Virus record (IMG/VR): IMGVR_UViG_2802429232_000001 | Span: 1 to 31,025 of that record | Length of the DNA stretch: 31,025 nucleotides | Direction: 5' to 3' (one strand) | From: a virus | Lineage: Duplodnaviria > Heunggongvirae > Uroviricota > Caudoviricetes | In this document: positions 28,106 through 31,025 of the stretch, piece after piece | Numbering within the stretch: the stretch's first letter is position 1 | Layout of the letters: the number at the start of each line of letters is the position of its first letter | Notes under the pieces: model-generated | What the model was told of the DNA's origin: nothing | What the model saw: the letters and a program-made list of their open reading frames with translations, nothing else | The model's database searches: none | Translations under genes and position numbers: made by a program

Positions 28106-28141
28106 ATGATGTGCTCACTTGTTAGAAAGGAGCACATCATG
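28106..28141 (+). promoter_or_regulatory. Perfect 11-bp inverted repeat ATGATGTGCTC-N13-GAGCACATCAT covering the SD and start codon of the next gene
   Basis: Read directly; the right arm ends in the ATG at ~28139 and the loop contains AAGGAG. Could form an mRNA hairpin occluding translation initiation, or be a dimeric-protein operator. Confidence 0.5.
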
Positions 28142-28705
28142 AGTTGGTTAAAAGAATTATCATTTGTTGACACCACTGGCGCTAAGAAAAATCATTCTTT
28201 CTGGAAAGTCAGCGATCCTTCTGATTTTCTTGTTGGTGCTAATGCTGCGTTTGAATTGCTTAACTTTTATCAACGTTATCCTGAAATGAAACACAGTCCA
28301 CTCCTGTACAGAATAACAAACGATATGAATAGGTCTGGTTTATTATCAAGTGAGTCAGCGAAAGGCTTTTTTAGCAAAATTACGCCACACATATCATTCG
28401 ATGCAGCAAACGAAATTGATTATCTATCCACGAAACCTCAAGAACAATTATCTGTACCACCTGAGAAAAAAGAAAGACGAATTGCCAGCATTGAAAATAT
28501 ATCGAAAGAGCTTCGCACAACAACGTTGAGGCTGCTGAACTTTCTTACGCTACTTAATTGGATAGATGATCAAACATTGATTCCATCAACCGATGCGTTG
28601 GATAACAGAGTCCTTCGTCTAAACAAAAAATCGCAATTTGGTTTTGTGTTCACCAAAAAAGGTGAAGATTTAATCAAAAGAAAATATAGATTATTGAATG
28701 ATTAA
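28139..28705 (+). CDS. Hypothetical protein (189 aa), AT-rich gene
   Basis: ORF track 28106..28705; start moved to ATG at 28139 (MSWLKEL), which has AAGGAG 7 nt upstream. Visibly lower G+C than the structural genes (by eye, not computed). Confidence 0.5.
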   Translation: MSWLKELSFVDTTGAKKNHSFWKVSDPSDFLVGANAAFELLNFYQRYPEMKHSPLLYRITNDMNRSGLLSSESAKGFFSKITPHISFDAANEIDYLSTKPQEQLSVPPEKKERRIASIENISKELRTTTLRLLNFLTLLNWIDDQTLIPSTDALDNRVLRLNKKSQFGFVFTKKGEDLIKRKYRLLND

Positions 28706-28710
28706 TAGTC

Positions 28711-28740
28711 TACATGCAGGTGTATGAGAGCACCTGCATG
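28711..28740 (+). terminator. 11-bp perfect hairpin ACATGCAGGTG-N8-CACCTGCATGT after the 189-aa gene (terminator-like or operator)
   Basis: Read directly; the T-run (TTTTTT) sits ~13 nt downstream rather than adjacent, so not a textbook intrinsic terminator. Confidence 0.4.
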
Positions 28741-28850
28741 TGACATTCATCACATTTTTTGAAGTACACACCTCCGGCTGAAAAAATTTCTTGATTGGCT
28801 GAACGATATTTGTAGGCTTTTCAATTGATAACTAAGGTCGGATACTGTAG

Positions 28851-29339
28851 ATGAGTATTTCTATAAACAAAATAATTAACTCTTTACGACATAAAATATC
28901 ACATGGAAAAGATGTTCTTTTTAAAGACAAATATTATCTATTCAACTTAGTGCCGTACAAATGTACAAAATTTTATATCACTCGGGACTGTAAATATTCA
29001 GTTTCAATCACAAAAGACATGAAGAAAATCTCTTCAGAAGAGTACTTCATATCACATATTTATATCTACCCATTTAAATTAGAACCATTAAATATAATTC
29101 TTCCAACAATAAAAGGGGTTGAACTTGAAGGTTATACTTTAAGCTCTAACTTTAATGATATGGGTGTACAAAAACCAGGGTCAAGGTCATACTACGCCTA
29201 CAAAGTAAAATGCAATAACTACAACGCACTTAACATGCTAATCAGCAAACTTGAAACGGAGATAGTCAAAGGAAATCTAAATGATGATCATGAAAAATTA
29301 GAACAAATAGAAAAACTTAGAAAGTGTGATGTTAAATAA
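28851..29339 (+). CDS. Hypothetical protein (162 aa), strongly AT-rich gene
   Basis: ORF track. Lys/Asn/Ile/Tyr-rich; composition by eye roughly 30-35% G+C, clearly below the rest of the window. Confidence 0.5.
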   Translation: MSISINKIINSLRHKISHGKDVLFKDKYYLFNLVPYKCTKFYITRDCKYSVSITKDMKKISSEEYFISHIYIYPFKLEPLNIILPTIKGVELEGYTLSSNFNDMGVQKPGSRSYYAYKVKCNNYNALNMLISKLETEIVKGNLNDDHEKLEQIEKLRKCDVK

Positions 29340-29354
29340 TTGGATTATCATGAT

Positions 29355-29954
29355 ATGAAAATGAAACTTTCGTTACTCCTTGCTTGTATATGCCTCCCGG
29401 CGTTTTCCGCCAACGCATTATCAGATTTCGTCTCTGACATGCAAAAAACGTACAGCATGTATACTTCTGAAGACGTACTAAAATACAAATCACGAGGTCT
29501 GATTCAACCAGTCTGGTATAGATTCTCAGATAACGCAGAAGAAACAATACTTCATGCAGGAAAAGAAAGATTACGGTTGCAAATTAACGGGACCGCAGTA
29601 CCAGAAAACGCTAATGTAAGCTCTAACGAGGCCATGAAGCCATCTGGAATTGTTTTAGAAATTCAAGACGGTACACTCTATTGTGATGAAATGGCTACAA
29701 CGGGTTGCCAAGTGAACATCAGAGTTGGCAATGAAGAACCTATTGTCACTTATGCTAAGACTGAAGGGAATACCAGTGGGAAGGTATTGTTTATTGATGA
29801 AAACACAACAAAACGTATCGTTCGCGACATCAAGAAAACAACGAACTCTAAATCCGTCGATAAAAAAATCTATGTTGAAGTCCCCTTCTTGGTCGTTGGT
29901 AACAAAGAATTTAAATTTGGATTGCTGAAAACACCTCTAAGAGTATCAGAATGA
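29355..29954 (+). CDS. Secreted protein or lipoprotein (signal peptide MKMKLSLLLACICLPAFSANA)
   Basis: ORF track 29340..29954 begins at a TTG; first ATG at 29355 gives a classic signal peptide with a possible lipobox (LLAC) or signal peptidase I site (AFSA-NA). Confidence 0.5.
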   Translation: MKMKLSLLLACICLPAFSANALSDFVSDMQKTYSMYTSEDVLKYKSRGLIQPVWYRFSDNAEETILHAGKERLRLQINGTAVPENANVSSNEAMKPSGIVLEIQDGTLYCDEMATTGCQVNIRVGNEEPIVTYAKTEGNTSGKVLFIDENTTKRIVRDIKKTTNSKSVDKKIYVEVPFLVVGNKEFKFGLLKTPLRVSE

Positions 29955-30472
29955 GAACATTGGACATCACCTACGGCATACCGGCTGAAGTATGGCCGCG
30001 AAACTACGAACATGCTGAACGCACCTTGCTCTTCTGGCGGAGTGCTCAATTTCCTGTAAGAGTCACTCTCGAAGACGGCCAAGTGTTTTGCATGTATGTC
30101 TACGGGCTGTTGAGCGCAAGAAATAAGCTGAACCTCACACCAGATCCGTTTAGCAACACAAATCGTGTAAGGCTCCCTCTTGAGCGCATTAGCACAATTG
30201 AGTCAGGCATAGAAGAGGTTGACACTTCATTCACAGGTCGACTAACACTGAACAATGAACAGATGGTTAATCAGCCATCACGCCGTGACTTTTTTGCGAT
30301 ATGTCGCAAGGCTTATCAAAACGACCAATCTATAAGGGTCTACATGGCAGACGGTCGTGAAATAGAAGGGGTATCAAGAGGCGTTGATGCTTGCCAGGTC
30401 ACTCTTAAGTTAGAAGACGGCAGAAAAATACTTGTTTTCTTCGATTGGGTTGAACGAATTTTACCTTTTTGA
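29951..30472 (+). CDS. Protein with two Rof/YaeO-like repeats (putative Rho-interacting Sm-like fold)
   Basis: ORF track (173 aa); start overlaps upstream stop (ATGA). Both halves carry hydrophobic-x-hydrophobic-x-(E/K)DG cores (RVTLEDGQVF, RVYMADGREIEG, QVTLKLEDGRKILVF) and a tail RVRLPLERISTIES that resemble E. coli Rof (LTLELKDGEKLQAKA, RELRLDKITSFS) as I recall it. Confidence 0.45.
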   Translation: MRTLDITYGIPAEVWPRNYEHAERTLLFWRSAQFPVRVTLEDGQVFCMYVYGLLSARNKLNLTPDPFSNTNRVRLPLERISTIESGIEEVDTSFTGRLTLNNEQMVNQPSRRDFFAICRKAYQNDQSIRVYMADGREIEGVSRGVDACQVTLKLEDGRKILVFFDWVERILPF

Positions 30473-30475
30473 GTT

Positions 30476-30772
30476 ATGAAATCGATACTATTGACATCTT
30501 TATTTTTAGTTTACTCAATTTCGGCCAATGCAAAGGATGATATCGCAATTATTCAGTCGCTGATGAATGACGTATGCTCAACGTCTCAGAATGTACCAGT
30601 TTGCATGTTTAAACTTTCAGCAGCTGTAAAACTAGGGATAAACATTGGTAAGACCGCTCAACTATGTGAACAAGTGGAAAATTATGAACCATGTGAATCG
30701 AACAACTCTTCTGTGCAGTTCGTTGATGCGTTATTTGACACCAATCGTAAGGCTGTAGAGTCAGTCCGATAA
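30476..30772 (+). CDS. Small secreted Cys-containing protein (signal peptide MKSILLTSLFLVYSISANA)
   Basis: ORF track (98 aa); cleavable signal peptide; mature part has four Cys. Confidence 0.5.
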   Translation: MKSILLTSLFLVYSISANAKDDIAIIQSLMNDVCSTSQNVPVCMFKLSAAVKLGINIGKTAQLCEQVENYEPCESNNSSVQFVDALFDTNRKAVESVR

Positions 30773-30784
30773 ATGTATAAGGGT

Positions 30785-30813
30785 AATAACCGGCTAAGTC
30801 CGGTTATTTTTTT
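30785..30813 (+). terminator. Intrinsic terminator closing the plus-strand accessory operon
   Basis: AATAACCGG-ctaagt-CCGGTTATT followed directly by TTTTTTT, 13 nt after the last stop codon. Confidence 0.75.
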
Positions 30814-31025
30814 AAATGCCATTTATTAAATACACCTCCAATTCTACCCCGTATAAATATATAAGGTTATAAGCCGCAATTAATTATTTATTTAGGGAAC
30901 ACCTTCGACGATCTCGATTTTATTTCTAGGACTTCCGTCCCTGCAAAAAATTTAAAAAAAAACATGCAATCTTTTTTTGCGTATCGATAATTTAACGAAT
31001 AAGAAACGAGAGTAAAAATTTTCTT

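Follow-up and report, generated by a model that had tools for sequence, protein, structure and literature searches.

An FljA-family protein with two predicted Sm-like domains in SSU5/pHCM2/pMT1-type phage-plasmids

What is the role of a small protein, with motifs reminiscent of the Rho inhibitor Rof, that is encoded near the ParB and helicase genes of a tailed-phage genome? The DNA analysed here, referred to as the window, is a 31,025-nucleotide stretch (positions 1 to 31,025) of the IMG/VR virus record IMGVR_UViG_2802429232_000001, assigned to the Caudoviricetes. On its plus strand a genuine open reading frame (ORF) of 173 codons with an ATG start occupies positions 29951-30472, exactly where a reading of the sequence alone had placed it. 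That sequence-only reading proposed that the protein consists of two repeats resembling Rof (YaeO), and that it might inhibit the host factor Rho. Profile comparisons instead place the protein firmly in the FljA family, whose characterised members repress flagellin, and structural modelling predicts a tandem pair of Hfq-like barrels. The gene is carried by phage-plasmids and kept under purifying selection in flagellated and aflagellate hosts, which raises the question of what the protein represses.

Family membership and predicted fold

By profile comparison the protein is firmly a member of the FljA family and not of the Rof family. It matched Pfam PF03614 (Flag1_repress/FljA) with 230 bits (E 1.9e-68; the cut-off is 24 bits), covering profile positions 1-170 of 170, and the same profile matched each half of the protein separately; the match to PHROG 1444 reached E 2e-89, and NCBIfam held no model for the protein. 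Salmonella FljA (P0084, named as such by NCBI) was matched at E 9.2e-23 with 35% identity, residues 3-171 aligning with 6-173. When 1.84 billion cluster representatives were searched exhaustively with HMMER, no more than 23 related clusters (at 50% identity) came up, one of which was Salmonella FljA. Family membership and the presence of the gene on SSU5 and pHCM2-like elements had been annotated previously: the SSU5 copy already carries the name “putative repressor of phase 1 flagellin”, and RefSeq labels these proteins “transcriptional regulator”. One public source labels the exact window protein (P0129 cluster) “sRNA-binding regulator protein Hfq”, and some automated pipeline has therefore already caught an Hfq-like signal. 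The searchable literature (subscription papers and database notes aside) contained nothing linking FljA to the Sm or Hfq fold.

The closest known relatives are FljA of the Salmonella enterica fljBA operon, fljA(z66) of pBSSB1 and the fljA-like genes of E. coli, and they share PF03614 over its full length with the phage-plasmid protein. The latter is slightly shorter than Salmonella FljA (173 versus 179 residues), and three segments, I(T/S)YGxxAExWPRDY, PSRRD(F/Y)F and FDWVxRI, are common to the two. A conserved N-terminal segment at residues 5-18 appears in Salmonella FljA as ISYGREAEIWPRDY. Characterised FljA proteins act post-transcriptionally on fliC mRNA (PMC2652032); by analogy, an architecture of two Sm domains, binding to an mRNA leader and a block of translation would be features that Salmonella FljA and the phage-plasmid protein have in common. 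The genes differ in their settings. Unlike Salmonella fljA, the phage-plasmid gene has no flagellin gene, invertase or invertible promoter adjoining it, stands in a fixed backbone position beside parB and helicase genes, and is maintained in hosts that have no flagella.

The AlphaFold2 model (predicted local distance difference test score, pLDDT, 89.5; predicted template modelling score, pTM, 0.86) contains two modules, each made of a helix and five strands. In the N-terminal module the helix spans residues 20-31 and the strands 35-40, 45-54, 59-63, 72-76 and 80-85; in the C-terminal module the helix spans residues 115-123 and the strands 127-132, 137-145, 149-153, 159-163 and 167-172. As modelled, the protein is two Sm-like (Hfq-like) barrels in tandem, which bears out the Sm-like fold that the sequence-only reading had expected, and both domains are structurally nearer to Hfq than to YaeO/Rof. 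P35 and G43 in the N-terminal domain are (nearly) invariant in the family. Weak sequence signals point in the same direction: Pfam LSM (E 0.0095-0.053) and Hfq (E 0.029-0.078) were both matched under their gathering scores, with the C-terminal domain alone giving E 0.0095 for LSM and 0.029 for Hfq. A search of PDB sequences with the single protein returned no match, and a search with the family profile returned Hfq proteins only, at E about 0.6. The viral structures of BFVD offered no credible neighbour over the full length; the matches were to single small Sm-like phage proteins or had a high root-mean-square deviation.

The Sm fold is thus common to Hfq and the phage-plasmid protein, but the latter falls under the Pfam Hfq and LSM thresholds, and the two differ in construction. 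Hfq contributes one domain per subunit of a homohexamer, whereas the phage-plasmid protein has two fused Sm domains. In place of the Hfq Sm2 motif YKHAI the C-terminal domain has the invariant FDWVxRI, a correspondence placed by strand order and not by superposition.

The internal duplication reported by the sequence-only reading is real at the level of the modelled fold and weak at the level of sequence. Comparison of the two halves was not significant by BLASTP (E about 0.17) or by hhalign with a shallow alignment (probability 0.2%). With a diverse family alignment of 46 sequences that included distant relatives, hhalign aligned 49 in-register columns (residues 31-84 against 123-171) at P 3e-4, a score reached in none of 150 column shuffles. 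What did not survive was the register of the motif on which the duplication had been based: the true structural counterpart of VRVTLEDG (residues 36-43) is IRVYMADG (residues 128-135) and not the second LEDG (residues 150-157), which is not conserved in the family. The motif itself, (V/L)x(L/V)x(E/K)DG, has no match in the protein as it was written; with one x fewer, (V/L)x(L/V)(E/K)DG matches twice, at VTLEDG (residues 38-43) and LKLEDG (residues 152-157), and also matches LELKDG of E. coli Rof. Two matches occurred in 0 of 20000 shuffles of the protein, and the looser pattern h-x-h-x-h-x-DG occurs three times, beginning at residues 36, 128 and 150.

Phage-plasmid context, distribution and selection

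In addition to the FljA-like protein, the window encodes the central tail fibre J, a tape-measure protein, a portal, a large terminase and major head and tail proteins, along with two ParB-like proteins and a DEAD-box helicase. Its 3' part is 91-95% identical to SSU5-like elements (Escherichia phages CMS-2020a, PhiR41_1 and Cyrano), and an identical FljA-like protein is encoded on the E. coli plasmid pAVS0747-B (105 kb, circular, non-mobilizable, IncFIB). Because of the SSU5-like matches and the exact protein on pAVS0747-B, we assign the gene to a phage-plasmid of the SSU5/pHCM2/pMT1 type.

Searches with the protein by tblastn found it in 832 plasmid records, the match covering at least 80% of its length in 823, and in 13 phage records. 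Non-mobilizable plasmids accounted for 794 of the 832, and the plasmids among the records listed were mostly 105-115 kb. Klebsiella was the most frequent host (342 plasmids), followed by Escherichia (229), Enterobacter (92), Yersinia (62) and Salmonella (60).

The gene occupies the same slot across these elements. One strand carries an ABC ATPase and ParB-ParB, and the other carries, in order, the helicase, an ORF of roughly 93 residues, a variable insert, the FljA-like gene, a second variable insert and an ORF of roughly 217 residues; the annotated neighbours are hypothetical proteins, helicase and ParB. This arrangement was found in E. coli, SSU5, K. pneumoniae, Y. pestis pMT, a K. michiganensis element in which the protein is 37% identical, and a Klebsiella lineage in which it is 27% identical. 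Validated probes for the N- and C-terminal parts of FliC detected no flagellin coding sequence by tblastn (E<=1), either in the window (31 kb) or in any of 17 related loci; the gene is an orphan that lacks a partner flagellin gene. A scan of genome contigs yielded just six loci, which is not enough to gauge how often the gene is linked to flagellin genes.

The gene is under purifying selection in phage-plasmids. By the Nei-Gojobori method, ratios of nonsynonymous to synonymous divergence (dN/dS) between lineages were 0.09-0.14 where dS was unsaturated, with two exceptions: the window compared with Cyrano, where the gene is mosaic (0.36), and pMT compared with SSU5, whose copies are nearly identical (0.20). 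Among closely related K. pneumoniae copies the corresponding ratio of differences (pN/pS) was 0.08-0.15, calculated from 5-11 synonymous versus 2-3 non-synonymous differences. The mosaic structure was apparent when the window gene was compared with that of phage Cyrano (L001 5994-6515), as the proteins are identical bar one residue from about residue 107 to the end, and differ at many positions in the N-terminal half. This pattern suggests intragenic recombination where the two Sm domains meet.

A neighbour-joining tree resolved four deep groups, namely the main phage-plasmid clade, the K. michiganensis type, Salmonella FljA and a divergent Klebsiella type. The order of these groups is unsettled (121 versus 79 of 200 bootstraps), and the tree therefore does not tell whether the gene passed from phage-plasmids to the Salmonella chromosome or the other way.

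Some database entries for the family call for comment. The GenBank gene SSU5_121 (L002 3557-4003, 447 nucleotides) starts at an internal codon; the open frame that includes the conserved N-terminus MTNITDITYG is 528 nucleotides long, so the deposited protein is without its first 27 residues. Homologues with 60-67% identity (L012, L013; P0080) come from metagenome-assembled genome contigs labelled “Candidatus Fimivivens” and “Bacillota bacterium” and from a 2-kb contig labelled Gemella morbillorum. These are most likely mis-binned or contaminating contigs of enterobacterial phage-plasmids and not true Firmicutes genes. A chromosomal copy of the phage-plasmid type (P0073, 174 residues, 47% identity) was found on a 5.2-Mb E. 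coli contig; it has several short scrambled stretches, for example ...PERGLLRGCHTF..., as might arise from compensating frameshifts or decay, and it may be an integrated, degenerating copy.

Candidate functions

We lean, by a modest measure, toward reading the protein as an RNA-binding repressor whose target is not restricted to flagellin, and what follows about binding to RNA, repression of translation and the target itself is what we infer by analogy. As an FljA-family post-transcriptional regulator, encoded by a backbone gene of SSU5/pHCM2/pMT1-type phage-plasmids, the protein would bind the 5' leader of a specific mRNA through its Sm-like surfaces, block the initiation of translation and leave the mRNA exposed to decay. 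Where the host is flagellated, as E. coli and Salmonella are, flagellin (fliC) mRNA is the only target with precedent, and its repression would turn off flagellin and motility. The main target would be another mRNA, be it one of the phage-plasmid's own or a host transcript that is conserved. Neither K. pneumoniae nor Y. pestis is motile or has flagella, and for this reason a function limited to flagellin does not account for the conservation of the gene. It is the lack of a partner flagellin gene, together with purifying selection in these aflagellate hosts, that leads us to propose a main target other than flagellin.

Several points weigh against this proposal. The literature that we were able to search contains no experiments on any phage-plasmid copy, and the argument for RNA binding is drawn from predicted fold and family alone. 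Sm-like folds also serve as protein-binding (Rof) or ligand-binding (WYL) modules, and the protein is near neutral (isoelectric point, pI, 5.9), not basic like Hfq or Salmonella FljA. The difference counts behind the Klebsiella pN/pS values are small. Comparison of the E. coli K-12 fliC leader (80 nucleotides upstream plus 30 nucleotides of coding sequence) with the window and 21 loci found no sequence resembling it, since the best score, 26.3 bits, lay within the range given by shuffled leaders (best scores averaging 24.5, 95th percentile 28.2). A scan of the window at Rfam gathering thresholds found no element. Since both of these were empty, we have no candidate target to put forward.

A rival role is that of a dedicated flagellin silencer acting in lysogenic conversion: the protein would serve solely to repress translation of host fliC, and the copies found in hosts without flagella would be evolutionary relics. 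Carriers would then be non-motile or H-antigen negative, saving energy, hiding the TLR5 ligand and excluding flagellum-dependent phages. All characterised members of this small family repress flagellin, the three segments shared with Salmonella FljA are conserved, and a plasmid bearing fljA(z66) turns motile E. coli non-motile (PMC2652032). Arguing the other way, the gene has no flagellin partner, the largest host group is Klebsiella (342 of the 832 plasmids) and Yersinia, with Y. pestis, contributes 62, and the copies in aflagellate hosts are intact, with pN/pS still about 0.1 when very close Klebsiella copies are compared. The fixed backbone slot, retained in lineages just 27-37% identical, is also unlike that of accessory cargo. 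We further count against this role that S. Typhi CT18, which we take to carry pHCM2, is presumably still typed H:d. On balance we consider a role confined to flagellin rather unlikely. The RefSeq and PHROG labels imply something different again, a DNA-binding transcriptional regulator that represses a promoter of the phage-plasmid or the host, to which we give hardly any weight. Neither Pfam nor the AlphaFold2 model revealed a helix-turn-helix or other DNA-binding domain, and in WYL proteins the Sm-like domain is a ligand sensor and not the DNA binder. The label itself goes back to an early view of FljA as a transcriptional repressor that has since been replaced by post-transcriptional control (PMC2652032).

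There remains the role first proposed for this gene, that of a Rof-like Rho inhibitor, in which the N-terminal Sm domain would dock by way of its first helix on the N-terminal domain of Rho and suppress Rho-dependent termination of phage-plasmid transcripts. The Rof sequence behind the sequence-only reading was correct, and the copy used here matches PDB 1SG5 exactly and was also checked against 8PTM, but the identification of the two repeats as Rof-family halves was not upheld: Pfam ROF (PF07073) gave no match at E<=10 to the whole protein or to either half, against 1e-28 for E. coli Rof as a control, and PF03614 was matched instead. That reading had named two observations that would together speak against it, and they come apart, in that a Rof profile match is absent and the predicted fold is nonetheless related to Sm-like barrels. 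Rof is an Sm-like homologue of Hfq (PMC11018626), and its barrel of a helix and five strands is also present in the phage-plasmid protein. With a shallow Rof alignment (members at least 85% identical), hhalign aligned the N-terminal domain to Rof over 61 columns (residues 17-83 against Rof 13-73) at P 0.0032 and a probability of just 10%, a score that none of 150 column shuffles reached; the C-terminal domain gave no alignment. In this low-confidence register Rof Y13 corresponds to the invariant Y19, E17 to E23 (present in 36 of 37 phage-plasmid homologues), K47 to the invariant R57 and N48 to N58, which is (nearly) invariant in the phage-plasmid clade. These counterparts would fit a contact with Rho, as would the acidic E20 of the window protein at the position of Rof D14 and the report that Hfq, the closest fold, binds Rho (PMC11018626).

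Other observations speak against Rho binding. Y13 and D14 are essential, and alanine substitution of D14 abolishes binding (PMC11018626), but the D14 position is S, K, T or Q in 31 of the 37 phage-plasmid homologues and S in Salmonella FljA, and a hydrophobic residue takes the place of Rof E50. Rof contacts Rho with its free C-terminal carboxylate and loses its activity when tagged at the N-terminus (PMC11018626), whereas the Rof-like domain here is internal (residues 19-85), having 18 residues ahead of it and a second domain behind. Rof is a single domain of about 80-86 residues and strongly acidic (net charge -8, pI 4.6); the phage-plasmid protein has two domains and twice the size, and its N-terminal domain has a net charge of -1 and a pI of 5.8. 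Characterised members of the FljA family, moreover, target mRNA translation. We read the resemblance of the N-terminal domain to Rof as probable shared ancestry within the Sm superfamily, with a small chance of functional relevance, and not as family membership, and we judge Rho inhibition to be highly unlikely. A second known Rho antagonist, Psu of satellite phage P4, is reported to be a capsid-decoration dimer that drives Rho into hyper-oligomers (PMC11718236). Its likeness to the phage-plasmid protein is limited to the proposed function, a mobile-element product acting on Rho; its fold and mechanism are unrelated, and no other similarity was seen, although none was looked for.

For the annotation of this gene, the outcome is that it is not a demonstrable Rof homologue, and that the label “transcriptional regulator” is probably wrong too. 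Two Hfq-like barrels would help to explain in structural terms why FljA is reported to act on RNA, and selected retention in bacteria without flagella indicates that the one function known for the family is not all that it does; the points that we consider of moderate interest are this selection-backed retention and the tandem Hfq-like architecture. Phage-plasmids of the SSU5/pHCM2/pMT1 type occur commonly in clinical E. coli, Salmonella, Klebsiella and Y. pestis, and a conserved post-transcriptional regulator encoded there could change motility and the expression of the H antigen, with consequences for serotyping, TLR5 recognition and sensitivity to flagellotropic phages, or could control the lifestyle of the phage-plasmid itself. 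A broader scenario, which we think quite improbable, would make the FljA family an unrecognised class of tandem-Sm regulators born in SSU5/pMT1-type phage-plasmids. Three copies would assemble into an Hfq-like pseudo-hexamer controlling phage-plasmid or host transcripts, whether or not the host is flagellated, the N-terminal domain could also contact Rho and so link translational repression to Rho-dependent termination, and the Salmonella repressor would be a domesticated offshoot.

The gene and its surroundings

The features of the gene and its immediate neighbours are collected in Table 1. The preceding ORF ends in a stop codon that shares nucleotides with the start codon of the FljA-like gene (ATGA), and because of this overlap the two are probably co-translated. 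A scan for promoters found no convincing candidate for the operon that contains the FljA-like gene.

Table 1. Coordinates in the window of the FljA-like gene, its predicted domains and motifs, and adjacent features.
Feature	Position	Strand	Remarks
Coding sequence, FljA family (Pfam PF03614, PHROG 1444), two predicted Sm/Hfq-like domains	29951..30472	+	173 residues
Conserved N-terminal segment DITYGIPAEVWPRN, residues 5-18	29963..30004	+	low model confidence
Predicted N-terminal Sm-like domain, residues 19-85	30005..30205	+	
VRVTLEDG, residues 36-43	30056..30079	+	beta1-turn-beta2 of N-terminal domain; motif copy 1 of the sequence-only reading
Linker, residues 86-112	30206..30286	+	short strand at residues 97-99; conserved PSRRDFF leading into second helix
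Predicted C-terminal Sm-like domain, residues 113-173	30287..30469	+	helix 115-123 and five strands
IRVYMADG, residues 128-135	30332..30355	+	beta1-turn-beta2 of C-terminal domain
VTLKLEDG, residues 150-157	30398..30421	+	beta3-beta4 hairpin of C-terminal domain; motif copy 2 of the sequence-only reading
Upstream ORF, lipoprotein-type signal (LLLAC), PHROG 18942	29340..29954	+	about 199-204 residues
Downstream ORF, Sec-type signal peptide, PHROG 9536	30476..30772	+	98 residues; starts 4 nucleotides past the stop of the FljA-like gene
Terminator-like hairpin followed by T run	30785..30808	+	probable end of transcription unit

The downstream ORF appears to belong to the same operon as the FljA-like gene. 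Its 98-residue product has a signal peptide ending in ...SISANA, followed by KDD, and several cysteines, and the equivalent position is filled in some relatives and empty in others. From the hairpin to the end of the window (30810-31025) the sequence is intergenic and very AT-rich, with long A and T runs.

Upstream, the interval between a conserved ORF of about 92 residues and the FljA-like gene (28106-29954) is a variable cargo spot, which in the window holds three ORFs. These encode a protein of 199 residues, a protein of 162 residues with a sub-threshold YmgB/AriR-like match (E 0.0012), and the lipoprotein of about 200 residues with the LLLAC lipobox. In relatives the same spot is occupied by other lipoprotein genes, at times on the opposite strand (L001 4107-5891, L002 3049-3471, L004 3390-3827).

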